In this document: positions 1,876-27,909 of the stretch, piece after piece
Layout of the letters: every line of letters begins with the position of its first letter
How positions within the stretch are numbered: position 1 is the first letter of the stretch
Made by a program: the position numbers and the translations under genes
Origin: Dehalococcoidia bacterium
GTDB lineage: Bacteria; Chloroflexota; Dehalococcoidia; Lucifugimonadales; UBA3495
Assembly: GCA_965204805.1 (NCBI GenBank)
Contig: OZ242013.1
Span: forward strand, 4,589,232-4,653,231
DNA: 64,000 bases
Direction: 5' to 3'
The notes under the pieces: model-generated
Seen by the model: the letters and a program-made list of their open reading frames with translations, nothing else
Databases searched by the model: none
Told to the model about the DNA's origin: nothing

Positions 1876-4800
1876 TCAGTCGCCGCTGAGTTCGGCTACC
1901 TTCTCCTTCAGCCAGCGCAAACCGCCGTTGTTCACCTTCGTCTCGGACACCCAGTCCTCGTCGGTGGGGTCACCCAGGAAGAACCGGGGTATCACCGAGC
2001 CCGTCACCCCGGCCAGCCGGTCCACGTCGTCCTGCACGTCGCCCTTGACCTCGCTGTACTTGATTCCGGCGTCCTTCAGCAGCTTCACCCCTTGGTTGTA
2101 GCGGTCCACCGCGTCGTCTCCCGCGTCGGGGTCGTGGTAGATCACGAAGGAGACGGCGGGTTCACTGGCCGGAGTGTTGGCTGCCGCTACCGCGGCGGTG
2201 GCGGCGCTGGTCAGGGTCTCGGCGTTTCCAGCGTCGTCGGTGAAGGACACCGTTACCTTGATGGCCTTGCCCACATCGGCAGCGACTGGCGTGTAGCTGG
2301 AACCCGTGGCCCCCGATATATTCGCCCCGTCGGCCAGCCACTGGTAGCTGAAGCTGGCGTTGGCCAGCCCGTCGGCGTCGCTGATGCCCGAGGTGGCCAA
2401 CGTCAGTGTCTCTCCCACCTGCGCCGTGCCGCTGATGGTCGGGGCACCAGAGGCAGGGCTGTTGGCCAGCGGTTCCTGGGCCGGGGCCGCATTGGTGGTC
2501 CCGCTGCCCTCGGCCGAGTCGCCTTTGGCTTCTAATCCGGCGATGGTGTGGCGAGCCGTTACCTTGACCGTGTAGGCCGTCTCCGCCACCAGCCCCGTGA
2601 TCCGCTCGCTGGTGGCCGTGGCGTCGGAGCGGGTGACGGCGGTGTAGCTGCTGCTCCCCGTCTTCCACTCCACCACGTAGCCCACGGCTCCAGAGACCGC
2701 CGGCCAGGATACGTCCAAGCTGTCGCTGCTGTCGGCTACCGCCGAGACGGTGACGGCCCCCATGGCGGCCAGGGTGGTCCCGCTGGCCTCGCCCACCGCC
2801 AGTTCCGCGTCCGGGTCCGCCTCGGTGTCGATGGCCGTTACCTGGACGGTGTAGGCGGTATCTGCCGTCAGGCCGGTGACGGTGTGGCTGGTATTGGTCG
2901 CTCCCTCTCCGATGTTGTAGGAACCGGAACCGGTCTTCCACCGGACCAGGTACCGGTCGGCGTCGGTCACCGCCTTCCAGGACACTGCCAGCCTGGTGGT
3001 CTCACCGCTTACCGGATTGACCGTCAGCCCTTCCATCTCCGCCGGTTCCGCCGGCGCATAGGCCGTAGCGCCGCTCATTTCGGAGGTCTTCTCCCTGAGC
3101 CACCGCAGGCCGCCGTTGTTCTCTCCCGGCTGGGACACCCAGCCTTCTTCAGTGGGGTCTCCCAGGAAGAACCGGGGCAGGACCGAGTCGATCACCCCGG
3201 CCAGCCGGTCAACGTCATCTTGCACGGCGCCCCTGACCACCGTGTACTCGATCTCGGCGTCTATCAGCAGCTTGACCGCCTGGTTGTAGCGGTCCACCGC
3301 CGCATCTCCGGCGTTGGGGTCGTGGTAGACCACGAAGGAAACGGCGGGAGTCTCATCCGACTGCTGCTGGTCCGTGGTGCCGCTGGCCGTACCCTCGGCC
3401 AGCAGGCTGTTCTCCGCGTCCAGGGCGGCGACGTTGACGGTGTAGGTGGTGTTCGGGGACAGGCCCGTGATGGTGTAGCTGTTGGTGGTGGCCTGCTGGG
3501 CGTCGCCGTAGTCCCCGGCGCCGGTCTTCCAGCGCACGTCGTACCGCGCCGCGCCCTGCACCTCGTCCCAGTTCACGGCCAGCTGGCTGGGCTGGCCCGA
3601 AACGGAGGTAACGGTCAGGCCGGCCAGCGCCGCCGTTCCCACGCCTTCCGGCGGGCTCTGGCCTTGCCCGGTTTCGTTCGGCGCGTTGGTTGTGCCGCTG
3701 GCCTCGGCGGAGTCGCCGTCTTCGTGGTTGCCTAGCCAGTTGCTCAGCACGGTGACCTTGACCGTGTACGCCGTTTCGGCTTCGAGGCCGGTGACCTGGT
3801 AGGCGGTGGTGCCGCTGGAAACGGTCGCCGAGTTCGTGTCGGTGTAGTCCCCGGCGCCGGTCTTCCACTCCACCCGGTAGCCCCTGACCGTATAGCCGTC
3901 GGAGCGAAGCGTCGGTGCCGTCCACCGCACGTTCAGCTTGGTGGTCTCGCGGTCCGCCGCCGAAACGGACAGCCCGGTGATCTCCCCGAAAGTCGCGCCG
4001 TAGCTGGCGTGGGAGAGGCCGTCGGGCGCAGACGCGGAACCGGCGGCGGTATATGCGATGACCCTGGCCTCGTACTCCGTATTGGGCTGCAGGCCGGTCA
4101 CCCGCAGGACAGGCGACTTCAGCGGCTCGCCCGTGTAGTAGGGGAGGGTGTAGGTCCGGTAGGTCGTCATGTTGTCGGCGGTCACCGTGCGGCGGCTACT
4201 TGTCCCGCAGGTGTCGAAGGTGACCGGCTTCAACTCGATCACGTAGCCGGCCGCGGTGCTCACCGTCTCCCACTCGACGTCCGCGGCCCGGGCGTCGCCC
4301 GCGACGGGATCCAGGTACACCACGCCGGGCCAGCCGTGTAGCGTCACCGTCGCCTCCTGGGCGTGGCCGTCGCTCGCGCCGCCCTGTTGGGTCAGCCTGA
4401 CCGTGTGCACGCCCAGAGCCAGACCACTGACCTCATGGGAGGAAACCTCAGACCCAGCCGTGTGGCTGCGCTCCAAGGTGCTGTACGACTGCGCCCCGGT
4501 CTTCCATTGCACCAGGTAGCCAGTCACTCCCGGCTCCGTCGAGGGCGTCCACAACACCCTCAGCACGTCATCGAACAGCGAATGCTGCCTCGGTGCCAAC
4601 TGGGCGTTGGCGACACCGTTGACGCTGAACAACACGTTGGAGGATGGCTCAGCAGGCCACGAGCCCCCATGCCGTCTGTGGTTAACCGAGTAGCGTTGGA
4701 TGCGGCGGCCGTCGGCGATGGACCAGCCAGCCGCGCCGGTCTCGGCGTGCGAAAGAGTAAGTCTGACGCCGTTTCGGTGGGTGTAGGCACGGCAGACGAC

Positions 4801-7101
4801 GTCGATGATGACGTAGTAGGTGGTGTCCGGTTCCAGGTGGAGGCCGGGGTGGGTGAAGGTGTTGCCGCCGCTGCTCAGCGTGTCCGGGTTGGTCAATATG
4901 GCCAGCGCTTTCCCCGGCCTACCGCCGAGTGTGCTCTCGGCGGCGATGAAGACCTCCAGGCCGTCCGAGCGGGTGCCGGCAGGGATTCCCCGGAGAATGA
5001 GATCGACGCTGGTCAGCGTGTAGCCGGTGGCGTTGCCGCCGGTCGTGAAGCCCTGGGCGGCGTCGGCCCCGCCCAACGTCTCGTAGTTGCGCCGGGCATT
5101 GCCCGTGTTGCTGACCAGCACCCCAGGCGACGCCGACGGCGCGTTGGTCGTGCCGCTGCCCTCGGCGGAGTCGCCGTCGGCGGCCTGGCCGTCGATGCTG
5201 ACCCGGGCTGTTACCCTCACCGTGTAGACGGTGCTGGCGCTCAGGCCGGAGATCCGGGCCGAGGTGACGTTTGCCGCCGTGGTGTGCCTGCGCTCAGTAT
5301 CCGAAAACTCCTCGCCGCCGGTCTTCCACTGCACCAGGTAGCCGGTCTCCCCGTTGATGTCCGCCCAGGAGGGGCTCAGCTCGGTCGAGCTGCCGGCCAC
5401 CGCCGAGACGCTGATGGCGCCCATCTCGTCCGGCGTGGTGGCGACTGCCTGGTCCGACGCCAGGTCCGCGTCGGGGTCGGCGTCGGTGTCGACGGCGGTG
5501 ACCTGGACGGTGTAGGTCGTGTCCGCAGTCAGCCCGGTGATGGTGTGGCTGTTGGTGGTCACCGTCGTGCCGGAGGAGTAGGCGCTGGTGGCGGTCTTGT
5601 GCTGCACCCGGTACTGCTCCGCCCCCCCTTGCGCCGTCCACGACACCGCCAGCTCCGTGGTCTTGCCCGCCACCGGCTTGACGGTCAGCCCGGCCAGGTC
5701 CGCCAACGTGCCGTTGATGCGCATCACCAGGCTGGAGGCGCCCGAGGAGTATGTGCCCGTGGAGTTGTACGTCCGGTAGTGGCCGTCGTTGCCGATGGTC
5801 CAGCCCACCGTGCTGTCCTCGTCATTCGACGAGGTGGTGCGAACGTAGGTCCTGTAGGCAGTGCCGGTGGCGCTGACGTCGATGACCACGAAGTAGCTGG
5901 TGGAGGAGGCCAGCGCCAGGCCCGTGTGGGTGAATCTGTTGAGTCCGGTGGCCAGGGCCGGCGGCGCGGTGAGCGTGGCCAGGCTGTCGCCCGGCTGGCC
6001 GTTGCTGTCAGCGTGGACGGCGACGGTGAACGTCGGTGCGGTGCCGGTGGCTTCTCTCACCATGTCCAGGTCGACGCTGGTCAGGATGTAGCCGCCCCCG
6101 CCCGTCGTGAACCCCTGGGCATTGTCGTTGGAGAGTTGTATGTCCTGGGCGGTCTCGTCGGTGTTGGAGACCAGGGCCACCGAAGGGGTGGTGACGGTGC
6201 CGTTGATGCGCATCACCAGGCTCGCTGGGTCCGAGGAGTATGAGTCCAGGGAGCCGAAGGAGCGGTAGTGGCCATCGTCGCCGATGGTCCAGCCCGCCGT
6301 GCCGTCCTCCTCATCGGACCTGATGAAATTGACGAAGGTCGCAAAGGCGGTACCCCGGGCGCTGACGTCGATGACCACGAAGTAGCTGGTGGCGGGGGCC
6401 AGCCCCACGCCCGTGTGGGTGAACGTGTTGATCCCTTCAGCGATGGTCTCCGGCGCGGTGAGCGTGGCCAGTTTGCTGCCCGGCTGGCCGTTGCTGTCGG
6501 CGTGGATGGCGACGGTGAACGTCGGCGCGGTGCCCGGGTCCTTACCCATCGGCAACTCGACGCTGGTCACGATGTAGCCGCCGGCGCCCGTCGTGAACCC
6601 CTGGGCGCGGTCCTGGTTGTGCTCGAAGCTCTGGGGACTGCCCTTGCCGATGTTGGAGACCAGCACCTGTTCCTGCACAGGGGGTGCTTCGAGCACCACG
6701 ATGGCGATGTCGAACTTGGCCGTGTCGCCGTCGGCGTCGGTCACGGTGTACTTGTACCCGGTCAGGGCCTGCGCCCTCGTGGGGACGCCGGTCAGCTTGC
6801 GCGTCGACGCGTTGAAGGTCACCCCGGCGGGCAGCGTCGCGCCTTGCTCCGGCGTCAGGCTGTAGGTCAGCGTCCCGTCGCCGGTGGCTGCGGGGAGGGT
6901 GACGTCGACCGCAACGCCGACCGTGTACTCCTGGACCAGGTCGAGCACGGTGAACGTGCCGTCATGCACCCACTTCGGCCTGGTGTCCGCCTGGGCGGAG
7001 GCGTGGTCGGGCGAGCCGACAACCAGCAGGGCAACCAGGATGCCCAGGGCAAAGAGGACTCCCCGGTGCAGGATGAAGCGCGGCGGGCGCGACATGCTCA
7101 T
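1876..7101 (-). CDS. Giant secreted surface protein A (1741 aa): signal-anchor, cadherin-like Ig domain, 3x LVSN module, many FN3 repeats, internal plus C-terminal Grx-like domain
   Basis: Uninterrupted 1741-codon ORF with RBS caGGAGGtgagacctcATG. N-terminus MSMSRPPRFILHRGVLFALGILVALLVVGSPDHASAQA. One LPAATGDGTLTYSL..LPAGVTF..TGVPT Ig-like domain. Three ~150-aa modules (LVSN..AQGFTTG..GY.LTSV.L..FTVA.HADSNGQPG..LATLT.P....G.N.FTH.GL.L...T.YFVVIDV..GW.I). Numerous FN3-like units (L.VSW....GA..Y.V.WKTG...Y......T..T..ITGL...T.YTV.V.A). One PTISGTAQVGETLT..YQWLADG..I.GAT Ig-like repeat. The ~92-aa domain VSFV(I/V)YHDP.AGD.AVDRYNQ..KLL.DA.I.Y..V.G.VQDDVDRLAGV..SV.PRFFLGDPT.E.WVS......NNGGLRWL.EK occurs twice: internally at ~3070-3348 and at the C-terminus at 1876-2154. 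Confidence 0.9.
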   Translation of the reverse strand: MSMSRPPRFILHRGVLFALGILVALLVVGSPDHASAQADTRPKWVHDGTFTVLDLVQEYTVGVAVDVTLPAATGDGTLTYSLTPEQGATLPAGVTFNASTRKLTGVPTRAQALTGYKYTVTDADGDTAKFDIAIVVLEAPPVQEQVLVSNIGKGSPQSFEHNQDRAQGFTTGAGGYIVTSVELPMGKDPGTAPTFTVAIHADSNGQPGSKLATLTAPETIAEGINTFTHTGVGLAPATSYFVVIDVSARGTAFATFVNFIRSDEEDGTAGWTIGDDGHYRSFGSLDSYSSDPASLVMRINGTVTTPSVALVSNTDETAQDIQLSNDNAQGFTTGGGGYILTSVDLDMVREATGTAPTFTVAVHADSNGQPGDSLATLTAPPALATGLNRFTHTGLALASSTSYFVVIDVSATGTAYRTYVRTTSSNDEDSTVGWTIGNDGHYRTYNSTGTYSSGASSLVMRINGTLADLAGLTVKPVAGKTTELAVSWTAQGGAEQYRVQHKTATSAYSSGTTVTTNSHTITGLTADTTYTVQVTAVDTDADPDADLASDQAVATTPDEMGAISVSAVAGSSTELSPSWADINGETGYLVQWKTGGEEFSDTERRHTTAANVTSARISGLSASTVYTVRVTARVSIDGQAADGDSAEGSGTTNAPSASPGVLVSNTGNARRNYETLGGADAAQGFTTGGNATGYTLTSVDLILRGIPAGTRSDGLEVFIAAESTLGGRPGKALAILTNPDTLSSGGNTFTHPGLHLEPDTTYYVIIDVVCRAYTHRNGVRLTLSHAETGAAGWSIADGRRIQRYSVNHRRHGGSWPAEPSSNVLFSVNGVANAQLAPRQHSLFDDVLRVLWTPSTEPGVTGYLVQWKTGAQSYSTLERSHTAGSEVSSHEVSGLALGVHTVRLTQQGGASDGHAQEATVTLHGWPGVVYLDPVAGDARAADVEWETVSTAAGYVIELKPVTFDTCGTSSRRTVTADNMTTYRTYTLPYYTGEPLKSPVLRVTGLQPNTEYEARVIAYTAAGSASAPDGLSHASYGATFGEITGLSVSAADRETTKLNVRWTAPTLRSDGYTVRGYRVEWKTGAGDYTDTNSATVSSGTTAYQVTGLEAETAYTVKVTVLSNWLGNHEDGDSAEASGTTNAPNETGQGQSPPEGVGTAALAGLTVTSVSGQPSQLAVNWDEVQGAARYDVRWKTGAGDYGDAQQATTNSYTITGLSPNTTYTVNVAALDAENSLLAEGTASGTTDQQQSDETPAVSFVVYHDPNAGDAAVDRYNQAVKLLIDAEIEYTVVRGAVQDDVDRLAGVIDSVLPRFFLGDPTEEGWVSQPGENNGGLRWLREKTSEMSGATAYAPAEPAEMEGLTVNPVSGETTRLAVSWKAVTDADRYLVRWKTGSGSYNIGEGATNTSHTVTGLTADTAYTVQVTAIDTEADPDAELAVGEASGTTLAAMGAVTVSAVADSSDSLDVSWPAVSGAVGYVVEWKTGSSSYTAVTRSDATATSERITGLVAETAYTVKVTARHTIAGLEAKGDSAEGSGTTNAAPAQEPLANSPASGAPTISGTAQVGETLTLATSGISDADGLANASFSYQWLADGANISGATGSSYTPVAADVGKAIKVTVSFTDDAGNAETLTSAATAAVAAANTPASEPAVSFVIYHDPDAGDDAVDRYNQGVKLLKDAGIKYSEVKGDVQDDVDRLAGVTGSVIPRFFLGDPTDEDWVSETKVNNGGLRWLKEKVAELSGD

Positions 7102-7498
7102 GAGGTCTCACCTCCTGTCAGGGCACTGCTGGCGACAACTGGACGAGGGCGCGGGTAAACGGCAACCGCGCCACCGTCTTTGGACGGAGCGCGCTGAAAA
7201 GAGAACGCCGCGCGGTAAACTGACGGCGCGGCGGGATTATCCGGTGAGGCGGGTTTCCACCGGGCGGGGAACGCCGGCGAATGCTGGTTGATGGGCCGGT
7301 TCCCACCGGAACCGGAGGGTCCGGAGTGAGAGTGAAGTGCTCTGTCATTACACACCCTGTTCTAGCCGGAACGAGGGGGGGCTGACAGGGGTATGCTGAA
7401 ATGCAACCGGCGCGCCCCGAGGCGGTGGCGATTACGGCAAACGGCCCTGTTTCCGGCCTGAAGACAGCCAAGTTAATACAGCCAACTCTCCCGGTGGG
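7102..7498 (-). promoter_or_regulatory. Conserved ~400-nt 5' leader of gene A (copy 1 of 3): riboswitch/attenuator-like, class unrecognised
   Basis: Alignable with 12762-13195 and 27452-27909. The conserved core (~7251-7375) reads, in RNA sense, GGGUG.GUAAUG..A.AGCAC....C.U.ACUC-hairpin-GGUUCCGG.GGGA...CCA.CA.UCGCCGG.C.U.CCCGCCCGG.GGA. It is followed by an internal intrinsic terminator (7205-7243) and then ~100 nt to the RBS. Confidence 0.55.
7205..7243 (-). terminator. Intrinsic terminator inside the leader of gene A (attenuator candidate)
   Basis: RNA sense: CGCCGCGC-cgucaguuuac-GCGCGGCG followed by UUCUCUUUUC. It lies ~105 nt upstream of the ATG at 7101. The same hairpin, with compensatory changes, occurs in the other two leader copies. 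Confidence 0.6.
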
Positions 7499-7610
7499 CA
7501 GAATCTGAGAATATATTAGACACTCCCCATGAAATTGATATAGCAATATCGTGTAATCACTCTTTCATTTTGCGTGTCAATCTTTGTGTCAACCGGCTCT
7601 AGGGTATAAT
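7499..7610. promoter_or_regulatory. Conserved AT-rich divergent promoter block (copy 1 of 3)
   Basis: Near-identical ~60-bp block cagaatctgagaatatattagacactccccatgaaattgatatagcaatatcgtgtaatcac. On the minus strand this reads ..TAATATATT.., a likely -10 region for the leader. It is followed by the direct repeat GTGTCAA-N5-GTGTCAA and a perfect plus-strand TATAAT at 7605-7610. All elements are conserved at 13196-13309 and 27910-28023. Confidence 0.5.
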
Positions 7611-7733
7611 GGGTTCCGGTTTGGGCTCCCGCAGGTAGGATGACGCGCTTGGGCGGTCGCCTCAGTCCCGACCGGTGGGCCGATGTACCGCCATATCCGG
7701 CATCGGGTGACGGCGGCCGGCAACCAAAGCTGA

Positions 7734-7759
7734 GACGGCTCCCGCGTGCGGGAGCCGTC
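7734..7759 (-). terminator. Hairpin terminator after giant gene B (potentially bidirectional)
   Basis: Perfect inverted repeat gacggctcccgc-gt-gcgggagccgtc, 34 nt downstream of the TGA at 7793-7795. On the minus strand it is followed by UCUCAGCUUUGG. Confidence 0.55.
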
Positions 7760-7792
7760 CTCATCCCTTGGTCCTATCTCCGTCAGCGTTGG

Positions 7793-10700
7793 TCAGCCGC
7801 CGCTCAGTTCGGCCACCTTCTCCTTCAGCCAGCGGAGGCCCCCGTTGTTCTCGCGCGGCTTGGATGTCCACCCTTCCTCAGTGGGGTCCCCCAGGAAGAA
7901 CCGGGGCAGCACCGAGCCGGTCACCCCGGCCAGCCCGTCCACGTCCTCCTGCACATCGCCGATGACCTCGCTGTAGGAAATACCGGCGTCCTTCAGCAGC
8001 TTGACCGCCTGGTTGTATCGGTCCACCGCGGCGTCCCCGGCGTCTGGGTCGTAGTAGATGACGAAGGAGACATCCGGAGCCGCAGCCGATTGCTGCTCGT
8101 CCGTACCTTCACCTTCATTCGGGTCGGTGGACTGGCCGGTTTGCGGCTCCGTGGCGCCGTTGGCCGTGGCCTCCGCCAGCAGTGTGTTGTCCCCGTCCAG
8201 GGCGGCGACGTTGACGGTGTAGCTGGTGTTCGCCGACAGGCCCGTGATGGTGTAGCTGTTCGTGGTGGCCTGCTGGGCGTCGCCGTAGTCCCCGGCGCCG
8301 GTCTTCCAGCGCACGTCGTACCGCGCCGCGCCCTGCACCGCCCCCCAGGACACGGCCAGCTGGGTGGGCTGGCCCGAGACGGAGGCAACGGTCAGGCCGG
8401 TCAGCGTCGCCGTTCCCACGGGGTCCTGGTCCTGCGAGGGATCGGGTTGGACGGCCTCGCCGGTCTGCGGCGGCGCCGCCGTGGTTCCGACGACTGCGCC
8501 CGCCGCAAGGATCTCATCCGTTGCCGTGTTATAGGCGAAGACGTGGATGGTGTAGGCCGTGTCCGCCGTCAGGCCCGTGATGGTGTGGGGGCTCCTTGTC
8601 AGGTTCGGCGGCCTGCTCGGCGGCTCCACCCGTCCCTCATCCCCGGGGCCGGAAATGCTGTAGTTGCCGGTGGCGGTCTTCCAGCGGACGTTGTACCGGG
8701 TGGTGATCCCCGCCGGGGGAGTCCAGGTCCAGGACACCACCAACCGTGTGTGAGCGTTCGTGGCGGGCGCTGAAACGCTCAGCCCGGTCAGCGTGCCGCC
8801 GGTGGTGGTGGCGTCGTGGCTGTCATCGGCCTTCAAGTAGCCGTCCGCGCCGGTTGCCGCGACGTAGACGACGTAGTTCGTGCCGGCCTTCAGGCCCGTT
8901 ATGGTGTAGCTGGTCCCGGTGGTCTCCACGGCCTCGCTCCACGGGTTGCCGACGCCGCTTTCCTTCCAGCTGACGCTGTACTTGGTTGCGCCCTCCACCC
9001 CGTTCCAGGACGCCGCCAGCTGGGTGTTCTCCCCGGTGACGGGCTCCACGGCCAGGGTCAGCGTCGTCGGGAGGGGTTTCGTGGGTGTAGATTCGGTCGC
9101 CGTGCCGGGTGTGCCGCTGCCCGAAGCCTGGCCGATGTCATTGTTCTGGTGGCGGGCCGTGACCCGCACGGTGTAGATGGTGTCCTCCTCCAGCCCGGTG
9201 ATCCGCTCGTATGCCGCCTTGGGGTCGGTCCTGGTGACTGCGGTGAAGGCGCCGGTGTTCGGGCCGGTGCCGTCGGGGGTCAACCACGTCCGGTACTCCA
9301 CGACGTAGGAGATGTCGTCCCTGGGGATGGCGGTCCACCACACGTCCAGCTTGTCGGCTTCGCCCTGGATGGGCTGGACGGTGACGGGGCCGAAGGGACC
9401 GCGGGTCTTGCCCGTCGCCCGGCCCGAGCCCATCTCCAGGCCGTCCGTGGCGCCCTCTATCGCCACCACCTGGACGGTGTACAACGTATCGGCCTCCAGT
9501 CCAGTTACTGTAGCGGTGGCCTTGAAGCTTGGTATGCCTATCGTGAGATTGGCGCGGCTGATAGTCTGGGACACCGTGTACGGGATGTGGTACAGGCCTA
9601 TGCTCCCCTTCTTGTACTCAACCCGGTAGTGGTCGGCGCGGGAATCATCCTCCCAGAACACCCGGAGTTGGTTCTGGTTCGTGTGGTCGGTCCTGGCCTC
9701 GACTCCCCCTATGGCCAGCTCCGAAGTGGTGGCGATAACCGTGTCCTCACCAGCGTCCCCGCCGAGAGTGTTACCTCTAATGTACCAGGCTACTGCGACC
9801 CTTACCGCGTAGTTCGCGTTGGGGGTGAGACCGGTTATCCGAAAGGGTGAGGCCGCACCGGCCTTGGCTGTGACCCAGGATGCCGTGCCATCCTTCCGGT
9901 ACCTCACGGTGTAGTGGTAATAGCCTGTGCTCGGCTCAAGGGCCGGCCAGGACACGATAAGGCCGTCGCCATGGTTCACCACAGGACTGGCCTGGACGCC
10001 GTCGAACACCGCGCGGGTCGTGCCCACGGCTTGGCCGGAGCCAAGACTCCCGCCGCTCCCCAGCGCCGTCACCTGGACGGTGTACTCGGTGTCAGCCTCC
10101 AGGCCCATCAACCGGAAGAAATGGCCGACCTGTAGCGGAGGCGTGGAGTCCCTGAACAGGACGAACGGCTCCGACGGGTCCGTGCCCGCCTTGTACTCGA
10201 CCCGGTAGGCGGTGGTGCCGGGCACGGCCTGCCAGTTCAACCGGAGTTCGGTTACGTGGAGGGGATGGTTTTCCGCCGTGACTCCCCCGACCCTCTGGAC
10301 CGTCAACTCAGAGGTGGTCCCGCGCGCCTTGGCGGCGGGGTTATCGGTGCAGCCGGAGCCCGACTTCTGGAAGCCCAGCCGGACCTCGTACTCGGTGCTG
10401 GCAACCAGGCCGCTGATCTGGTACGTCGTGGTCTGGCTGGTCAGGGACTGAGTGGTCCCGTAGCTGCCGATGCCCGGCGGCGTCCGCCAGTCCAGGCAGT
10501 AGCCCGTTGCGCCGGAGAACGGGTCCCAGGACACGTCCAGGGCCCCGGCGTCGCCGGCCACGGGGGTCACGGCGAGCCCGGTGGGACGGCTCAGGGTGGT
10601 GACCTGGGCCGTCGCCTTGTTCACCCCTGCGTTGGGGTCCGCCTCGCGGCGGTGGGCCGAGACCTCGACGGTGTATGTCGTGGCGGGCCGCAGAATGCTG

Positions 10701-12761
10701 GCGGCAGGTTCATAGATCTTCATGGCCGAGCCATGCGACAGCCTCGTCTCGTACTCGCCGCCGCTCCCGTCGGTCAACCTGACCCGGTAGAAGTCGGCGC
10801 TCGGCACCGGATTCCACAGCAACCCGATCGTCATCCTGCCGTCGTCGACGAAGCCGGGGGTCGCCACTAGCCCGGTGGGCGCGGGCAGGGACTCCGAATC
10901 CGCCGGTGGCGGCGGCTCCGGCGGCGTGCCATTCGTCGTGCCCTGGGCCTCGCCGGTGATGCTGGGACGCCAGCTGCTTCGCACAGGGGTGACCTTCACC
11001 GTGTAGGTCGTGCCGGGGGCCAGACCTCCGATCCGGTGGCTGGTCTTCGTCGTGGTCGTCCAACCGGACTCCTGTCCCTCCGCCCGCCACTCTATCCGGT
11101 AGTGACGAGTCCAGCGCACGGAGGGCCAGGACACGTCCAGCTCGGTCGTGCTGCCGTCCACCGGGGCGACACTCACGGTCAGAACCCCCCGGGGGCCGGG
11201 TCCGGCTCCGGCGGAGGAGGTCCCGGTTGCCCGACCTTGGGCGGGTCGGCCAGACGCACCTTCGCGGGCGGCACGGGATGGCTCGTATAGTTCCCGAAGC
11301 GCAGGGTGAAGCTGCCCGTCTTGAGCGGGTAGGCGCTGGTGATCTCCAGGATGTAGTTGCCGGGGTCCAGGGTCCGCACCAGCCGCGAGTTCAGGCTGAA
11401 CGGGTTGCGCTGGTCGTCGTTCTCGTCGATCCTGACGGCGCTGCCCGGGCTGTTGCCCTCGGCCAGGTAGAGCTGGGCGTCGAAGTCGTCCGACTCCAAG
11501 GTGAACACCACGTCCTGGCGATGCTGGCCGGTGACGCTGAAGCTGGCGTGCCGGGCGTAGGCCGAGACGTAGCGAGGCGGGAATATGGCCGGGCACGCGC
11601 TGGTGAGCTCGTCGTCGTACTTGCCGAACTCGATGGGCGCCGGCGCACAGGGCGGGGTGTCCGGTTGCGGCAAGGGGATCGGCTTGACGAGGCCCTTCAC
11701 CTCTATGTGCCTGGTGGTGGAGAGATGCGTAAATGTGCCCGTGGAGTCCCAGGCCCGCCGAGAGATATTGTTGTTGATGCTCCAACCGGGCGCGCCGGAC
11801 TCGCCAGTGTCGGCAGTGCCCAGGAGCCGGTCATCGCTGCGGTTGGAGGCGTCGATGAACACCATGTAACTGGTGGGGCGGCCAGGTCCAGGCCCGAGTG
11901 GGTGAACGTGTTCCTGCCGCTAACGATGGCCTGGGGCGCGGTCAGATCGCCCACCTTGGTGCCCAGCTGGTTGCCGTTGGCGGTGTAGATGGCGACGGCG
12001 ACCGTCGACCTGACGGTTCCGGCGTGGGCTATGTTCAGGTCGACGCTGGTCAGGGTATAGCCGGTCGGGTTGCTCCCCGTGGTGAACCTCTGGGCATAGT
12101 CAAATCTCAGGGTGCCCCAGAAATTCTGCACGCGGTCGAAGTTGGTGACCAGCACCCCTATACCCTTGGCGACGCCGTTGATGCCGATCTTCAGGGCAGT
12201 TGTGGCCGTCGACCACGCGCCCGTGGAGTTCCAGGCCCGGCCATGGGCCACGTTGTTGATGCTCCAACCCGACGCGCCGGACTCGGCGTCGGAGAGGGTA
12301 ACGTCGATACCGCTCCCCGTACCTGTGGAAGTGACGTCGAAGACCACGAAGTAGCTGGTGGAGGGGGCCAGGTCCAGGCCCGTGTGGGTGAACGTGTTTA
12401 CGCCGGTGGCGAGGGTCCCCGGCGCGGTCAGCGTGGCCAGTCTGTTGCCGGGCTGGCCGTTGCTGCTGGCGTGGACGGCCACGGAGAACGTTGCCCTGTT
12501 GCTCTGCGTGAAGGCCATGTCCAGATCGACGCTGGTCAGGGTATAGCCCAAGATGCTGCTGCCCGTCGTGAACTCCTGGGCATACTTCTCAGTCCTGAAG
12601 TCCGCATTGGCCGCGGTCGTCTCGCCGATGTTGGAGACCAGGGCCGCCGACTGGGCGGAGGCCCGGTCCGGCGAGCCCACGGCCAGCAGAACGATCAGGA
12701 GACCCAGGGCGATGAGGACGCCCCGGTGCAGGATGTAGCGCGACGGAAGCAGTCTGGTCAT
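7793..12761 (-). pseudogene. Giant secreted surface protein B (~1656 codons if repaired), split by two 1-nt frameshifts in homopolymer runs
   Basis: Three ORF-track pieces join into one protein: 11703-12761, 11179-11865 and the biologically meaningful part of 7793-11785. Junction 1: ..NTFTHSGLDLAAP | TSYMVFIDASN.. at the G4 run 11875-11878. Junction 2: ..PPPPEPDPAPGG | VLTVSVAPVDGSTTELDVSWP.. at the C6G5 run 11185-11195. The span is 4969 nt, and adding 2 nt gives 1657 codons. Content: family signal-anchor MTRLLPSRYILHRGVLIALGLLIVLLAVGSPDRASAQ, 2 LVSN modules, a PPC-like domain, many FN3 repeats, and the C-terminal Grx-like domain (7793-8071). Confidence 0.8.
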
Positions 12762-13195
12762 TGCATTGCCTCTCTTCTATTGGGTATGGACGCGCCGGAC
12801 GGCGGCGCGGACGGGGTTGGCCTTGGCTGGGGTCGTGGGAGAGTCTTCGTCCTCAAGGGCGCGGCGGCGGAGCGTCCCGCAGCCGGTGTCTTCAAAGAAG
12901 CGGGCTGAGAAAAAGCGCCGTTGCGGTCAGCCAACGGCGCAGTCAGGGTGCCTCGTAAAGCGGGACTCCACCGGGCGGGGAACGCCCGGCGAGTGGTGGC
13001 GGGTAGGTCAGGTCCCGCCGGAACCGGAGGGGCCAGAGTGAAGGGGCAGTGCTGTCTCATTACTCACCCCGTTCTAGCTGCGACTTGCGACTAAGGTCAG
13101 GGGTGGCTGACATGGGTGTGCTGCGACAGTTACGGCAAACGGCCTTATTTCCGGCCTGAAGGCAGCCAAGCCTATATCTCCCCTCTCCCGGCGGG
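12762..13195 (-). promoter_or_regulatory. Conserved 5' leader of gene B (copy 2 of 3): riboswitch/attenuator-like
   Basis: Same architecture as 7102-7498. Core at ~12955-13078, internal terminator at 12907-12940, conserved pre-RBS hairpin GCGCCG-ccguc-CGGCGC, and RBS agaaGAGAGGcaatgcaATG. Confidence 0.55.
12907..12940 (-). terminator. Intrinsic terminator inside the leader of gene B
   Basis: RNA sense: GCGCCGUUG-gcugaccg-CAACGGCGC followed by UUUUUCUC. This is the strongest U-tract of the three copies. Confidence 0.65.
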
Positions 13196-13309
13196 CAGAA
13201 TCTGAAAATATATTAGTCAATCCCCATGAAATTGATATAGCAATAACGTGTAATTACATCTCAAATATGAGTGTCATTCTTTGTGTCAATTAGCCGGTGA
13301 GGGTATAAT
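13196..13309. promoter_or_regulatory. Conserved AT-rich divergent promoter block (copy 2 of 3)
   Basis: cagaatctgaaaatatattagtcaatccccatgaaattgatatagcaataacgtgtaattac, then GTGTCAT-N5-GTGTCAA, then TATAAT at 13304-13309. Confidence 0.5.
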
Positions 13310-13503
13310 AGGTTCCGGTTGGGCGCTCCCGGAGGCAGGATGACGCCCGCGGGCGGTCGCCTCCGTGTCGGCTGGTTAGTCAGCGATGATTGCCCTCACA
13401 CCCTGAGCCTGCCTGAAAGCCTCTTCTATTGGCCCCAGTTCCGGCCGGGGGCCGACGTCCCGCTATGTCCCGCATCGGGTGGCGGCGGGAGGCAAACAAA
13501 GCC

Positions 13504-13533
13504 GAGGACGGCCCCTGCACGTGGGCCGTCCTC
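13504..13533 (-). terminator. Hairpin terminator after giant gene D
   Basis: gaggacggccc-ctgcacgt-gggccgtcctc, 11-bp perfect stem, ~28 nt downstream of the TGA at 13561-13563. Confidence 0.5.
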
Positions 13534-13560
13534 ATCTCTTGGCGCTATTTCCGGCAGGGG

Positions 13561-16500
13561 TCAGCCGCTGCTGAGTTCGGTCACCTTCTCCTTCAGCCAG
13601 CGCAGGCCCCCGTTGTTCTCGCCCGGCTCGGACACCCAATCCTCAGCGGTGGGGTCGCCGTAGAAGAAGCGCGGCAGGACCGAGCCGGTCACCCCGGCCA
13701 ACTGGTCAACCTTGTCCTGGAGGTCGCCAAAGACCTGGTTGTACAGGATGCCGGCCTCGTCGAGCAGCGCGATAGCCTGGTTGTAGCGGTCCACCGCCTC
13801 ATCACCGGCGTCCCGGTCGTGGTAGATGACGAACAGGACGTTGGGGGTTTCATCCCCAGCCTCGCTGGTGCGAGGCGCCGTGGTCCCGTCGGCTTCCCCC
13901 TCCGCCAGCAGGGTGTTGTCCCCGTCCAGGGCGCTGACCTGGACGGTGTAGCTCGTGCCCGCCGTCAGCCCCGTGATGGTGTAGCTGTTGGTGGTGGCCT
14001 GCTGGGCGTCGCCGTAGCCGCCGGAGCCGGTCTTCCAGCGGACGTGGTACTTGGCCGCGGTTTCCACCCAGTCCCAGAACACGTCCAGTTGGGTGGGTTC
14101 GTCCGACGCGGGGGGCATGGCCAGGACGGTCAGCTCCGCAGTTCCCACAGGGGGTTCCTGGCCGCCGGGTTCTCCGCTCGTCGAGCCGGGCGTGCCCGTG
14201 ACCGTGGCCTCACCGGCGCTGACAAGAGTAAGCATGCCCGTATTGGGATTACGCGTTCTGACCCATTCAGCTGCCACCCTTATCGTATATTGCGTGCCGG
14301 GCGTGAGACCGGTTATCACGACGGGCGATACGCCCCTGTTGGTGACGCGGGTCTCCGCGTCGCCGGAGCCGGTCCTCTTGTAATACACGTAGTAGACGTA
14401 GTCGCCATCCAGCGCCGACCAGGACACCTCCAGCTGGTCGCCGTGGCCCGTCACCGGCTGGGCCGAGACGCCGCCGAACACCACGCGGGTCCTGCCCACG
14501 GCCTCGCCGATGGCCAGCTCCGTCTCGCCCTGCAGCGCCGTCACCCGGACGGTGTACCTCGTGTCGGGCTTGATGGACAGCAGCGAACCGGCGTGGCGTC
14601 CCCTGCCTTCATTTATTCTCATTCCCTCTGGGAAGCTGACGAACGGGCTCCACGGCCACGGGTCCGTGCCTTCCTTGCCCTCGATCCGGTAGCCGGTGGC
14701 GCCGGGCACGCTCTGCCAGACCACCCTGACGGTGGTCGGGTCGGCGGGATTGGTAACAACCTCAACCCCCTCGACGAACGGTGCGCCCACGGGGAGGTGG
14801 ACCTGGGCCGAGTCCTCGGCCAGGACGGCGCCCGACGGTCCTTTCGCCTCGATCTTAATGTCGTAGGTCAGGCCCAACCGGGGAGGGCTGGGGTCGGTGC
14901 TCTGGACGATGTTCCAGGTCTTGCCCCTGACCGTCGACCGGTAGGTGCGCCTGTTGCCCTCACCGTCAGGACCATCGGTCCACGTGACCTCATAGCTGTC
15001 CGCGCCTCCTACGGGGTCCCACTCCATGTAGATGCTGTAGGTGTCCCCGCCGGTGTACACGGGCCTTGCCGTGAACCCGAATCCCTGGATCGTAGCTGGC
15101 GGTACTGGTTCCGGCGTGGGCGTCGGCTCCGTGGACGGCGATCCGTTGGTCGTTGCGGAGGCTTCTGCGGTCAGCTGGACGGTCACCCTCACGTCGTAGG
15201 ACGTGCCGGGGATCAGCCCCTCGATCCGGTAGGAGGTGTCCGTGGTGGTGTGGGTGCGCTCCGTGTCGCTGTAGTCCTGCCCCTCCGACTTCCATTGCAC
15301 AACGTAGCGCGCCGCTCCGGTCACCGGCGGCCAGGACACGTCCAGCGCGGGGTCGCTGCTCGTTATCGGGACAACGGTCAACCCGCTCAACCCGGCCGAC
15401 GGCAGCGCGAGGGTCGTGCCCCGGGCTTCGCTTACGGAATCGCCGCCGTAATGCCGGGCGGTGACCCTCACCATGTAAGTCGTGCCGGGATACAACTCTC
15501 GGATCCGGTAGGAGGTGACGCTTCCGCTGTAGTCGCCCGTGCTGTGCCTGCGCTCCGATTCGCTGTACTCCTGTCCGTCCGCCTTCCACTCCACGACGTA
15601 GCCCCAGGCGTCCTCCACCTCATTCCAGGACACGTCCAGCGCGAATACGTTGCCGGGGACCGCTGAGACGGTCACCGTCACCGGCCCGGCGGGTTCCGGC
15701 GGCGGGGGGAAGTCACAGCCCTCCGGCGGCACGCGCACCTTAGCGGGGGGCAGCCCCGGCGGCCCGTAGGCCAGGACGTACCTCCCCGTGTCGCGCGCGT
15801 GGTAGGTGGTTACCTCCAGGATGTAGTCGCCGGGGTCCAGCTCCTTCACCAGCCGGGAGTTCTCGCTGCAGGGGTGGCGCTGGTCGTCGTTCTGGTCGAA
15901 GTCGGCGGCGTTGTCCGGGCTCGTGCCCTCGGCAATGTAGAGGAAGGCGTCGAAGTCGTCCGACTCCAAGGTGAAAGCCACGGTCTGGCGGTGCTCGCCG
16001 GTTATGCTGAAGCTGAAGTGATGGGCGTAGGCCGGCCGGTCCCGGAAGAACGACTCGCAGTTGTCGGTGAGGTCGTTCGTGTGCGAGCCGTACCCGCTGG
16101 GATCGATGGGGGTAACCACGCACGGCAGGACCGCCGGGGGCGGTATCCTGACCGCTTCGGCAGGTTCAAAGTCGTGCAACGTGTAATGGAAGACAAGTAT
16201 GCCCCGGTTGGTGGACAGATACGTTGCGTCTTCGTTTTGCCACATTCCCTTGACCGAAGTCAGTGATGGAATGCCATAATCTGAGCTAAAGGTGATGTCC
16301 TTACTGGCGTTCCTGGTAATTCCGTCGTAAGCGAATGCCTTCGTGTCGGTGATGACGTACGTTACGCCATCGTAATGCCACACCGAATTGGCCGTATTGC
16401 TGCCAAGCGTGCTGTGAATGTCGGTTTTACCCAGGGGCTCCATGTCCGGATCGCCGTATTCGACCAGGTCTGCATCATTACTCGCGCTAAGGAACGCCAC

Positions 16501-18231
16501 GAAGTACGTTTTCGTCCCGTCCGACGCGAAACCTTCGGGGTTGTACACCTGATTGCTATAGAGTAAATCAGGGTAGTCCTTGCTGGAATCAGCCTTTCTT
16601 GTGGTCGGGTTGTAGGCGTATACGCCGGCGAGCGCTTTTCCGTTGACTACCCACAACGTGGTCCCATCCGACCAGACGTCAAGCGGACCAGTCAGCGTGG
16701 TTATCGCCTTGTTGCCATCCCATTTGCCCGCATCTGTGTCGTACACGAGCACGTTGTTGCCGGCGTTATTCGCGACGTATATCAGCGAACCATCAGACCA
16801 GAGGCCCCTGAGATCACTGCCGGACGGCTTGCTTATGTCGGCATGCTTGGCGTAGTAGAATCCTCTGGTGCTGTAACCCTTGATGCTCCCCGCGAGTGAT
16901 TGGGTTGTGAATGCGCCGTTCGCCCCCACCCAGAGGCCTTGGGTGTTTTCGCCGAGAGCCAGCTGGGCCTTGACTGTTGCGTGGTAGGGGCTGAGAAACC
17001 TGTTCTCCAGATCGTATGTGAATATCTCCCGATGGCCTCCGTCCACGACATACAGTATGCCGAGATAGCCGCTTATCCCCGATGCGGACTGGTTCCCCCC
17101 CTGCAACGGTATGTCTCGCTCCGCCGGAGTTCCATCGAGGTTGAAGGACTCAATCACGCCGGCGGCGTGGCCTGAGACCCATATCGTACTTTGATCAAAA
17201 TAGACGCCGCGGGGGGTACGCTGTTTCGATGACGGCTGTAGCGTGATGTTTCGCGTCGGAGCGTACGTGTTGGCGGCAAGGGTATAGGCATACAGAATCC
17301 AGTCGTCCCTATCCAGCACCCACATAATCTCCCCGTCGGACCAGATGGGGCCAGGATTAGAATTCTGCGAACTCACCAGATCAATATCCTTGTCGTCATC
17401 CCGCTGCTTGGTTGCGACCGTGTACGCGAGCACTTTGGTCGGAGCAGTCAGTGTTCTCGGTACCACCCACAGGGTCGTGCCGTCGGACCATATCGATGTG
17501 GCTCCAAACTCCGCCGCGCCGGTCACGTCGATATCCCTGGCGCTGTCGCGATTTATGTTCACCTTCGGGCTGCTCGTGGTAAGAGCGACTCCGTCCAACC
17601 GGTAAGCGACATGTCGGCGGAGTTCCGTAGTCCAGCTCGCAACACCCGTAGCGTCGTGAGCCCTCCAGTAAGATGTAACGCCGTCCCAACCGAATGAACT
17701 GGTGTCATTCGTTGTGCTGGAATACCGGATACGACCACGGTTTCTCAACAGGGTATTGGTGGTGAGGTCATCCACCACCAGGGCGTAGCGGGTATTGGGC
17801 TCCAGATATGCCGGAGTTGTGAAAGTGAATGTATTGAGACCTTCGTCAAACGAGGTAATGCTCGCCGTTTCAGCCAGGACGGTCTCCGTCGGGAAATGGT
17901 CCGCCTGGTCCGCCTGCACGGTCCGAATGCTGATTTTCATTTGCCCAAAATCGGCTTGTCTGTTCAGGTGGAGGGATGCGCTGGATACCAGGTAACCGGT
18001 TTCATTGAGTCCGGTGGTGAACTGGTGAGCCACGTCGTGTGAAGCAAAAGCCCGGGTGAAAGTATCACGGGTTTCATCCAGGTTGCTGAGCAGCGCATTT
18101 GATACCGTTTGAGCCTGGACCGGTGCGGGGCCCGGCCCCAGCACTGAGGATGACAGGGCGACCAGGAGGGCCACGAGGGCGATGAGGACTCCCCGGTGCA
18201 GGATGAATCTCGACGGGCGCAATGCGGTCAT
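13561..18231 (-). CDS. Giant secreted surface protein D (1556 aa): signal-anchor, LVSN-like module, WSDG-repeat (beta-propeller-like) region, PPC-like domain, FN3 repeats, C-terminal Grx-like domain
   Basis: Intact ORF with RBS ataGAGGtaaattcATG. N-terminus MTALRPSRFILHRGVLIALVALLVAL. About 10 repeats contain (I/V/L)WSDG..(L/I/M)(W/Y)V(V/L), e.g. SIWSDGTTLWVV, PIWSDGEIMWVL, GLWSDGSLIYVA, DVWSDGTTLWVV. The PPC-like segment FSFSITGEHRQTVAFTLESDDFDAFLYIAEG..DQNDDQ matches those in gene B and in the 1-1439 lipoprotein. FN3 units follow. C-terminal domain at 13561-13839. Confidence 0.9.
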   Translation of the reverse strand: MTALRPSRFILHRGVLIALVALLVALSSSVLGPGPAPVQAQTVSNALLSNLDETRDTFTRAFASHDVAHQFTTGLNETGYLVSSASLHLNRQADFGQMKISIRTVQADQADHFPTETVLAETASITSFDEGLNTFTFTTPAYLEPNTRYALVVDDLTTNTLLRNRGRIRYSSTTNDTSSFGWDGVTSYWRAHDATGVASWTTELRRHVAYRLDGVALTTSSPKVNINRDSARDIDVTGAAEFGATSIWSDGTTLWVVPRTLTAPTKVLAYTVATKQRDDDKDIDLVSSQNSNPGPIWSDGEIMWVLDRDDWILYAYTLAANTYAPTRNITLQPSSKQRTPRGVYFDQSTIWVSGHAAGVIESFNLDGTPAERDIPLQGGNQSASGISGYLGILYVVDGGHREIFTYDLENRFLSPYHATVKAQLALGENTQGLWVGANGAFTTQSLAGSIKGYSTRGFYYAKHADISKPSGSDLRGLWSDGSLIYVANNAGNNVLVYDTDAGKWDGNKAITTLTGPLDVWSDGTTLWVVNGKALAGVYAYNPTTRKADSSKDYPDLLYSNQVYNPEGFASDGTKTYFVAFLSASNDADLVEYGDPDMEPLGKTDIHSTLGSNTANSVWHYDGVTYVITDTKAFAYDGITRNASKDITFSSDYGIPSLTSVKGMWQNEDATYLSTNRGILVFHYTLHDFEPAEAVRIPPPAVLPCVVTPIDPSGYGSHTNDLTDNCESFFRDRPAYAHHFSFSITGEHRQTVAFTLESDDFDAFLYIAEGTSPDNAADFDQNDDQRHPCSENSRLVKELDPGDYILEVTTYHARDTGRYVLAYGPPGLPPAKVRVPPEGCDFPPPPEPAGPVTVTVSAVPGNVFALDVSWNEVEDAWGYVVEWKADGQEYSESERRHSTGDYSGSVTSYRIRELYPGTTYMVRVTARHYGGDSVSEARGTTLALPSAGLSGLTVVPITSSDPALDVSWPPVTGAARYVVQWKSEGQDYSDTERTHTTTDTSYRIEGLIPGTSYDVRVTVQLTAEASATTNGSPSTEPTPTPEPVPPATIQGFGFTARPVYTGGDTYSIYMEWDPVGGADSYEVTWTDGPDGEGNRRTYRSTVRGKTWNIVQSTDPSPPRLGLTYDIKIEAKGPSGAVLAEDSAQVHLPVGAPFVEGVEVVTNPADPTTVRVVWQSVPGATGYRIEGKEGTDPWPWSPFVSFPEGMRINEGRGRHAGSLLSIKPDTRYTVRVTALQGETELAIGEAVGRTRVVFGGVSAQPVTGHGDQLEVSWSALDGDYVYYVYYKRTGSGDAETRVTNRGVSPVVITGLTPGTQYTIRVAAEWVRTRNPNTGMLTLVSAGEATVTGTPGSTSGEPGGQEPPVGTAELTVLAMPPASDEPTQLDVFWDWVETAAKYHVRWKTGSGGYGDAQQATTNSYTITGLTAGTSYTVQVSALDGDNTLLAEGEADGTTAPRTSEAGDETPNVLFVIYHDRDAGDEAVDRYNQAIALLDEAGILYNQVFGDLQDKVDQLAGVTGSVLPRFFYGDPTAEDWVSEPGENNGGLRWLKEKVTELSSG

Positions 18232-27451: not shown

Positions 27452-27592
27452 GGCGTTGCCTCTCTTCTATGGGTGTTGACGCGCCGGACGGCGGCGCAGA
27501 CGGGTTTGGCGGTGGAGCAAAAGGGGAAGTCTCCGCCCGCGAGGGCGCGGGGTCGGAACGTCCCGCAGCCGGTGTCTTCAAAGGGAGCGGTT

Positions 27593-27626
27593 CGAGAAAG
27601 GACGCCGCTGCGGTGAGCCAGCGGCG
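27593..27626 (-). terminator. Intrinsic terminator inside the leader of gene F
   Basis: RNA sense: CGCCGCUG-gcucacc-GCAGCGGCG followed by UCCUUUCUCG. The stem changes are compensatory relative to copy 2 (U-A becomes C-G). Confidence 0.55.
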
Positions 27627-27778
27627 CGCTGAGGTTGCCTGGTAAGGCGAACTTCCGCCGGGCGGGTAATGCCCGGCGAATGGTGGTTGATTGGTCAGTT
27701 CCCACCGGAACCAGTGGGACTGGAGTAAAGGGGCGGTGCTGTGGCATTACCCACCCCGGTTCAGCCAGTAGGAAGGTC

Positions 27779-27792
27779 GGGGGGGGGGGGGG
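27779..27792. repeat. Homopolymeric G14 tract (C14 in the leader RNA)
   Basis: Counted directly: gg at 27779-27780 plus 12 g at 27781-27792. The homologous positions hold G7 (7375-7381) in copy 1 and GGGGTGG in copy 2. Confidence 0.95.
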
Positions 27793-27909
27793 CTGACAGG
27801 CGTATGTTGCCACCAGCCCGGCGCATAAGGAACGCCGGGCCGGTGGCCGCAAGGTTCTCTATATCCGGCCTGAAGACATGCAAATTGGTATCTCCCATCT
27901 CCCGGCGGG

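Follow-up and report, generated by a model that had tools for sequence, protein, structure and literature searches.

A cysteine-free domain of predicted glutaredoxin fold, probably at the base of giant surface proteins of sponge symbionts

What would a glutaredoxin-like domain without cysteines be doing at the end of giant secreted proteins? The question is raised by a 64,000-nucleotide (nt) stretch of the genome of a Dehalococcoidia bacterium (Chloroflexota; contig OZ242013.1, positions 4,589,232 to 4,653,231), hereafter ‘the window’. Its G+C content is 55–69%, and its first 27.5 kb form a head-to-tail array of very large open reading frames (ORFs) on the minus strand. Within this array, translation and alignment reveal six homologous segments of about 92 amino acids (aa), all on the minus strand and all free of cysteine. 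We call the domain GrxL, for glutaredoxin-like. The original prediction, made from the bare sequence, took it for a redox-dead thioredoxin-fold domain and for the invariant C-terminal tag of the proteins that carry it. The fold has stood up to analysis; the invariance has not.

The six copies are 66–83% identical to one another in aa sequence and 75–86% in nt sequence, a similarity that reflects homology, not chance. All six exist as predicted, except that copy 2 is displaced by two codons (3067–3342 instead of ~3070–3348). They were also said to terminate giant proteins, and five do: a stop codon follows these after 0–1 residues. Copy 2 does not, but lies inside the ORF at 1876–7101.

The predicted structure of GrxL is that of a glutaredoxin. 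An AlphaFold2 model, run on an alignment of 29 sequences, has a predicted local distance difference test (pLDDT) of 95.7 and a predicted template modelling (TM) score of 0.87, and its elements follow one another in the order β1(2–7)-α1(13–29)-β2(32–37)-α2(41–48)-β3(57–60)-β4(~72–77)-α3(79–91). Foldseek searches of the PDB with this model place thioredoxin-fold proteins, exclusively, at the top: human SH3BGRL3 is best (TM 0.68), accompanied by Grx1 of Francisella tularensis (0.64/0.68), Aip5 (0.63) and Grx1 of Escherichia coli (0.61/0.64), and calsequestrin is among the weak matches. In BFVD, phage glutaredoxins and NrdH come first (TM 0.6–0.76, best E 3.6e-4). Modelling and structure comparison, then, returned glutaredoxin topology and no different fold, in keeping with the original assignment.

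Sequence comparison detects this kinship faintly. When a profile of 116 full GrxL copies was aligned by hhalign with six Grx-type sequences, the match reached a probability of 45% (E 2e-4) and spanned α1-β2-α2-cisPro-β3 in the correct register; against Grx1 alone and SH3BGRL3 alone, hhalign found nothing significant (0.2% probability). A sequence search of the PDB with a six-copy profile found nothing but spurious similarity to the heptad repeats of coronavirus spikes. On the model, GrxL is a domain in its own right that contains no cysteine and has the thioredoxin fold in its glutaredoxin form.

The same 116 copies define what the family conserves. Near-invariant are Y5, D7, P8, R17, L46-A-G-V, P55-R-F-F, G60-D-P, W67 and N74-N-G-G-L-R-W-L, with P55 present in 99% of copies and G76 and G77 in 99% and 96%, so that the signature reads Y-x-D-P ... 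R-Y ... L-A-G-V-x-x-S-x-x-P-R-F-F-x-G-D-P ... W ... N-N-G-G-L-R-W-L. Mapped onto the topology, D-P-D-A-G occupies the CxxC loop of glutaredoxins; V-x-P-R-F-F falls on the cis-Pro strand, with P55 just before β3, as in TVP; and N-N-G-G is the GG turn that precedes α3. The motif layout first read from the sequence (DPDAG at the CxxC site, a cis-Pro strand, and GG with a C-terminal helix) agrees with the modelled fold, and by their positions relative to β3 and α3 the cis-Pro and GG-turn motifs fit those of glutaredoxins. The active site does not. The β1-α1 loop reads D-P-[DN]-A-G, neither CxxC nor CxxS, with no cysteine there in any of the 116 copies; no cysteine is conserved at any other position, and cysteine is essentially absent throughout. 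Because of this, GrxL must, to judge from its sequence, be incapable of thiol-disulfide chemistry and is not a redox enzyme, and we have rejected an active enzyme as a candidate.

With glutaredoxins and NrdH (PF00462), then, GrxL shares the β1-α1-β2-α2-β3-β4-α3 fold, the GG turn before the last helix, and the strand motif [V/I]-x-P-R-x-F-[L/I]-G, for which human Grx1 has TVPRVFIG and E. coli Grx1 has TVPQIFI. It differs in having no CxxC or CxxS; in a conserved, family-specific insertion of 13 residues, GDPxxxxWxSxP, between β3 and β4; in the lack of a significant profile match (one of 19 GrxL members matches PF00462, at E=0.24); and in setting, for it resides extracellularly within giant multidomain proteins whereas glutaredoxins are small cytoplasmic enzymes. 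Structurally it is a glutaredoxin, yet it lacks two of the defining marks of one, the active-site cysteines and the profile match. Nor does it belong demonstrably to SH3BGR: no Pfam match links the two, hhalign against SH3BGRL3 is not significant, and the likeness is one of structure alone. SH3BGRL3, the C-terminal domain of Aip5, the b/b' domains of PDI, ERp29 and calsequestrin all have the thioredoxin or glutaredoxin fold and have likewise lost the catalytic cysteines. They serve as protein- or ion-binding modules and are all eukaryotic, intracellular or resident in the endoplasmic or sarcoplasmic reticulum. GrxL, in contrast, is bacterial and extracellular, carries its own motif (PRFF...NNGGLRWL), and has no detectable sequence kinship with any of them.

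How widespread is it? No model in Pfam, NCBIfam or PHROGs matches GrxL, and no paper describing it was found in a literature search; the domain libraries searched run to 2025–2026. HMMER searches of 1.84 billion cluster representatives found 123 proteins at E<1e-3, three of them the window's own genes, and a second protein search with a divergent GrxL profile found nothing new and no protein with a name. In a scan that took one genome for each prokaryotic species, 14 GrxL loci were located in 11 metagenome-assembled genomes (MAGs), labelled Chloroflexota/Dehalococcoidia, Alphaproteobacteria/Defluviicoccus and Acidobacteria. The searches envisaged in the original prediction have given GrxL a range, across these three groups, and partners, among them the fn3 and Calx-beta modules. 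GrxL is a rare domain family, new to Pfam, NCBIfam and PHROGs, that deserves a Pfam entry.

GrxL proteins occur in bacteria of at least three phyla, and at least six of the 11 MAGs trace to marine sponges. The ‘SB066x’ bins derive, we assume, specifically from Ircinia ramosa, and the ‘p16x’ bins, one of which carries the locus L001 discussed below, we assign by analogy of name to the Ircinia set. By their naming, the ‘RHO’ and ‘COS’ bins presumably belong to the genomes that Robbins et al. (2021) obtained from demosponges of coral reefs. Names of the form ‘jk18x…bins’ denote symbiont MAGs of Caribbean Ircinia (Kelly et al. 2022, PMC9531527), and ‘SB066x_bin’ names occur in a sponge-associated (Entoporibacteria) group (PMC7883664). 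For four records, from three MAGs with names in the style of universally unique identifiers, the origin was not established. The family is, apparently, restricted to sponges while crossing phyla.

Position within the protein is where the notion of an invariant C-terminal tag fails. Among the 69 cluster representatives of at least 300 aa, GrxL is at the extreme C-terminus in 38 and internal in 31, and it is N-terminal in four proteins. The 38 end 0–2 residues past the domain; they make up the Chloroflexota type, in which Calx-beta hardly ever occurs. In 20 of the 31 internal cases a Calx-beta module follows within 45 aa, often as two [GrxL–Calx-beta] units, and 18 of the 31 finish in a region of ~470 aa that opens with a WLARFGR helix-like segment and has W as its last residue in 14 of 15. 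TIGR01414 (autotrans_barl) matches this region in four of ten members (best E 5.7e-6), and in a separate scan of three sequences L005 scores 18.5 bits against a curated cut-off of 16. The region is probably the barrel of a type Va autotransporter. In these diderm proteins, then, one or two [GrxL–Calx-beta] units would immediately precede an outer-membrane barrel; the Chloroflexota proteins of the window have no such region. Signal peptide, long modular passenger, WLARFGR segment and a W-ending region that in some members matches TIGR01414 would liken the diderm homologues to type Va autotransporters; the passenger, however, consists of β-sandwich domains and GrxL instead of a β-helix, and the window proteins are barrel-less.

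The internal and N-terminal cases imply that being strictly C-terminal characterises the Chloroflexota lineage and not GrxL as such. GrxL is a general extracellular module of very large, Sec-exported mosaic proteins, whose other components are choice-of-anchor R, fn3, He_PIG and Calx-beta modules, and in almost every complete protein it occupies the C-terminal end of what is exported.

Might GrxL nonetheless be a true C-terminal sorting or secretion signal, read and perhaps cleaved by machinery of its own, comparable to the C-terminal domain of the type IX secretion system (T9SS), to PEP-CTERM or to LPXTG? The 38 Chloroflexota-type proteins that end within 0–2 residues of it would suit such a role, as would their layout of signal peptide, variable middle and constant C-terminal domain; moreover, the choice-of-anchor R series is named for its pairing with alternative C-terminal anchors, a naming logic documented for choice-of-anchor A. 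We consider it very improbable. A sorting signal should not be internal in 31 of 69 long representatives and N-terminal in four, nor occur twice in one protein, as it does in g1 (Table 1) and others. GrxL has an α/β fold and not a β-sandwich, has no transmembrane segment, sortase motif or hydrophobic tail, and matches no NCBIfam model of a sorting signal, so it is not a known sorting domain in disguise; and the window holds no candidate gene for the machinery.

The regular partnership with Calx-beta in diderm homologues brings to mind a different role, that of an acidic, calsequestrin-like Ca2+-binding module of thioredoxin fold that, with Calx-beta, stiffens the base of the stalk in the calcium of seawater. 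GrxL carries a net charge of –4 to –10 per 92 aa, the diderm pairing is strict, and calsequestrin is one of the weak structural matches. The whole giant proteins are acidic too, however; the acidic positions of GrxL are mostly variable, while the invariant ones hold aromatic residues, Arg, Asn or Gly; and the Chloroflexota proteins do without Calx-beta. Of the explanations that we weighed, this is the least probable.

That GrxL is conserved at the nt level far above the rest of the genes, as first thought, is partly so: it is the sole block common to all paralogues in the window, but other blocks are equally alike between particular pairs of paralogues (77–85% over 280–1450 nt). The copies differ by a mean of 0.54 synonymous substitutions per site (dS), and the mean ratio of nonsynonymous to synonymous substitution (dN/dS) is 0.31; together these values speak for purifying selection at the protein level and against recent homogenisation. 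Recent gene conversion, considered as the source of the conservation, we reject in view of the dS.

GrxL could also be a folding nucleus or stabilising cap that has no specific ligand, a very stable unit of thioredoxin fold that folds fast, autochaperone-like in the autotransporters and an end protector of the β-sandwich string in Chloroflexota. The site before Calx-beta and barrel is where, as is generally known of type Va autotransporters, autochaperone segments sit; the placement of GrxL is independent of the modules upstream; and it is the one block kept in every paralogue. We think this improbable all the same. D7, P8, R17, R56, D61, N74, N75 and R79 are near-invariant residues of surface type, more than fold stability needs, and the C-terminus of a Sec-exported Chloroflexota protein emerges last and cannot therefore nucleate vectorial folding. 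A flexible linker of 15–45 aa, low in complexity and rich in acidic residues, Q, S, T and P, moreover tethers the Chloroflexota GrxL and parts it from the rest of the protein.

GrxL and its neighbouring modules have had different histories. The nearest GrxL relative of a given copy has the same architecture for 37 of 43 terminal and 39 of 47 internal copies. The fn3 module just upstream of GrxL, on the other hand (window positions 3372–3651 and 8149–8420), is 82–85% identical in nt sequence to its counterparts at the alphaproteobacterial loci L010 and L013, whereas GrxL itself is 66–77% identical, and a He_PIG stretch at 19960–21037 is 78% identical to L011. From these cross-phylum identities it follows that upstream modules have been exchanged between phyla while GrxL remained typed by lineage. 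The identities indicate that the exchange of adhesin modules was recent, and a lineage-typed GrxL beside exchanged modules fits a part matched to its bearer's own envelope. Sponge symbionts are enriched in surface-adhesion genes of the fn3 and cadherin types, which also pass between them by lateral transfer (Robbins et al.).

The same company has suggested to us that GrxL could be directed at the host: an adhesion or effector module, part of the ‘eukaryotic-like protein’ repertoire, that mimics Cys-less proteins of the SH3BGRL3/Aip5 type and binds a sponge protein or the sponge matrix. Its best structural match in the PDB is human SH3BGRL3, with Aip5 not far behind. Apparently the family occurs solely in sponge-associated MAGs, which belong to three phyla; the modules that accompany it, of the fn3, Calx-beta and cadherin types, are enriched in sponge symbionts and move laterally there; the aggregation factors of sponges, according to the literature, are Calx-beta proteins too; and in P0100, P0101 and P0113, GrxL comes right after the signal peptide, which would expose it distally. 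Yet it has no detectable sequence similarity to SH3BGR or to any eukaryotic family, and bacterial and phage glutaredoxins resemble it just as closely. In the autotransporter-type proteins it always lies beside the barrel, furthest from the host, and its subtypes track the envelope type of the bearer while the neighbouring modules cross phyla. On balance, we regard host mimicry as unlikely.

We favour a base over a host-binding tip because of this cell-proximal position in the autotransporter-type relatives, the lineage-typed subtypes, and the dockerin-like layout of the window proteins. GrxL would have lost thiol chemistry and kept the surface elements of a glutaredoxin: the β1-α1 loop, the cis-Pro loop and the GG turn. 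In glutaredoxins these make up the face that binds substrate, and here they probably form a non-catalytic binding site; that the conserved residues lie on one face of GrxL is argued from the topology of the model. Taken with the C-terminal placement, the retained face suggests, as the most likely role, that GrxL forms the base of adhesin-like stalks close to the cell, or docks them there. That GrxL is a new, redox-dead module of glutaredoxin fold at the base of sponge-symbiont surface proteins seems to us probable; that it docks specifically on the envelope of its bearer is a more tentative proposal, on which we would not insist.

In the Chloroflexota of the window, GrxL would by analogy be a constant C-terminal module of the dockerin or SLH type. 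It would hold variable paralogous surface proteins on a component of the envelope, or on each other, with their variable N-terminal modules facing the sponge matrix. The layout is indeed that of proteins with dockerin, SLH or T9SS C-terminal domains—signal peptide, variable modules for catalysis or adhesion, flexible linker, and a constant C-terminal domain of ~90 aa that many paralogues have in common—but the fold is unrelated and diderm relatives carry the domain internally, and the likeness is one of functional analogy. We know of no partner for GrxL of the cohesin type or of the secondary cell wall polymer type.

Several observations weigh against this interpretation. In the diderm proteins the barrel already anchors the protein, making an anchor of GrxL redundant there, and the barrel region itself gave no match to PF03797 of Pfam or to the PDB in sequence and profile searches. 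Three of the five AlphaFold2 models (models 3–5) are of moderate confidence (pLDDT 66–69), and the Foldseek E-values are weak (3.6e-4 at best). GrxL directly follows the signal peptide in four proteins (P0025, P0100, P0101 and P0113), and P0027, from a phage-like contig, and P0131 apparently have no signal peptide; such cases would imply a more general binding or structural role. A sponge origin is backed by the literature for some of the MAGs only, and for the rest by naming conventions. Finally, a binding partner of GrxL and its retention on the cell are both hypothetical.

P0027 is curious in its own right. It is a divergent, stand-alone GrxL (36% identity), encoded at 4695–5186 of L015 (ENA ERZ25069412, a contig of 13.7 kb), where a Phage_lysozyme gene lies immediately upstream of it and ERF, YqaJ and HNH genes are close by. 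Neither a pattern scan of IMG/VR nor tblastn against GenBank phages found relatives of P0027 or L015, so the phage-like contig is an isolated case. Degraded GrxL fragments, also isolated, occur in L018 (10001–10450), in L004 (9848–10288), and in P0011 and P0018 on the window's own contig; IS110 and DDE transposases flank one of them. The fragments resemble remnants of giant genes that have broken up, and are consistent with rapid turnover of the gene family.

The genes of the window itself are listed in Table 1. Three of the five giant genes (g1, g4 and g5) are intact, and each opens with an obvious Sec signal peptide; such peptides are readable in the sequence, as in ...LVALLVVGSPDHASAQ. All three score above the cut-off of 30 bits for choice-of-anchor R, NF041539 (g1, 230.5; g4, 45.6; g5, 81.1). 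Cysteines are scarce in the giant proteins as a whole, numbering only 0–4 in 638–1741 aa. Small ORFs rich in Pro and Arg intervene between the giant genes and show no conservation elsewhere; we rejected them as partner genes and regard them as artefacts of the high G+C content.

Table 1. GrxL copies, giant genes and regulatory features of the window. Positions of GrxL copies are given without stop codons.
Feature	Position	Strand	Description
GrxL copy 1	1879–2154	–	C-terminal in g1; stop codon 1876–1878; AlphaFold2 model built on this copy
GrxL copy 2	3067–3342	–	Internal to g1; ~400 aa of ORF follow
GrxL copy 3	7796–8071	–	C-terminal in disrupted g3
GrxL copy 4	13564–13839	–	C-terminal in g4
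GrxL copy 5	18364–18639	–	C-terminal in g5
GrxL copy 6	22339–22614	–	C-terminal in disrupted g6
g1	1876–7101	–	1741-aa secreted giant protein (Pfam and NCBIfam scans, sequence)
g3	7793–12761	–	Giant gene in three frames: 12761–11703, 11865–11179, 11785–7793
g4	13561–18231	–	1556-aa secreted giant protein; signal peptide, choice-of-anchor R, repeat region, fn3 repeats, GrxL
g5	18361–22317	–	1318-aa secreted giant protein; signal peptide, choice-of-anchor R, 7 He_PIG, fn3, GrxL
g6	22336–27451	–	Giant gene in three frames: 27451–26483, 26789–24285, 24252–22336; ends in GrxL
g6 upstream region	27452–28031	–	Conserved; paralogous copies at 7102–7792 and 12762–13560 (alignment)
Hybrid sensor kinase-response regulator	28032–30422	+	GAF-PAS-HisKA-HATPase_c-REC-Trans_reg_C (Pfam)

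The order of modules in g1 is signal peptide, He_PIG, three choice-of-anchor R, eight fn3, GrxL, fn3, an Ig-like repeat, and GrxL again. Because the part downstream of copy 2 resembles the 3' part of g6 (77–83% nt identity, 1876–3066 versus 22336–24252), g1 appears to have arisen when two adjacent paralogues fused; no stop codon or signal peptide separates the internal GrxL from its g6-like continuation. An internal and a terminal copy are combined in at least four other cluster representatives as well (P0030–P0033). The disrupted g3 contains a signal peptide, choice-of-anchor R, fn3 repeats and GrxL, and residues 209–1330 of its last frame correspond to the public protein P0051. Together with g6 it may be a pseudogene, a decaying or phase-variable paralogue, or the product of frameshifts in a long-read assembly; pseudogenes and assembly errors come to mind since one frameshift junction in the g3 region (11170–11195) is a C6G5 homopolymer run. 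The protein of g4 is 100% identical to public protein P0062, whose gene lies on a contig of 4,677,930 bp; exact look-ups of this 1556-aa protein and of P0011 retrieved no record. Its residues ~230–700 comprise many short repeats of the ‘IWSDG(T/E)xxWV’ type, without a Pfam match, that may form a beta-propeller-like region, and after these comes a stretch that the disrupted gene also has, at 11179–11865 (48% aa identity).

A hybrid kinase-regulator gene adjoins the array divergently. Next to a giant gene in L001—a locus of a Chloroflexota MAG that is syntenic with the window at 73–83% nt identity—lies its orthologue, likewise divergent (2228–4486; 77% aa identity by tblastn), and Alphaproteobacteria have the regulator too, again divergent from and beside the giant gene, at 50–52% aa identity (L006, 4712–6886; L007, 3744–5933; L010, 4451–6643). 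Partial matches occur in L002, L005 and L013, the latter two at contig ends and all three beside a giant gene. This recurrence suggests that regulator and adhesin have been transferred together as a cassette.

Upstream of the three giant genes that have both signal peptides and long upstream regions lies a conserved segment of ~500 nt. These regions comprise an AT-rich core that resembles a promoter, together with a long leader rich in GC; over its final ~280 nt the leader is 69% identical in L001. Hairpins are predicted in the 5' leader, with essentially no covariation, and Rfam has no match in the window. All three upstream regions contain the direct repeat TGACAC-N6-TGACAC (27985–28002, 7574–7591 and 13271–13288); these are its only sites in the window, where 0.33 would be expected by chance. 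The repeat is plausible as a candidate site for a regulator of the OmpR/PhoB type, and expression of the giant genes would probably be under the divergently encoded hybrid kinase and OmpR-type regulator.

Beyond the array, the window has a defence-island-like character at 31551–36285 and 50868–57212, with an Eco57I-type methylase/restriction fusion, GmrSD, REase-ARP and DUF6361, and several large ORFs without a Pfam match. A pentapeptide-repeat protein (39372–40571) and a HEAT-repeat protein (61193–63004) are also encoded. Restriction-modification or defence genes, pentapeptide repeats and HEAT repeats are typical contents of sponge-symbiont genomes (Robbins et al.).

What might all this mean for the bacteria? 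At its boldest, our proposal is that GrxL is a non-covalent docking module of a new kind, for the cell envelope, that takes the place of the outer-membrane barrel, enabling single-membraned, possibly wall-less, sponge-symbiotic Chloroflexota to display giant adhesins that recombine rapidly, and that the whole cassette—hybrid kinase-regulator, TGACAC-N6-TGACAC operator and mosaic genes ending in GrxL—moves between phyla within sponges as a symbiosis island. This is speculation, and rather unlikely to be correct in every part.

Sponge symbionts are enriched in proteins of the adhesion and ‘eukaryote-like’ types, and the surface biology of Chloroflexota is, to our knowledge, especially poorly understood. 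GrxL identifies a family of surface proteins that crosses phyla, is apparently restricted to sponges and has a conserved regulator for a neighbour, and it adds a bacterial, extracellular case to the thioredoxin folds that have been re-used as non-redox modules. Compact, highly conserved and easily expressed, it offers a handle for pull-downs, localisation and antibodies, and it could serve to mark the surface cassettes of sponge symbionts and their lateral transfer.

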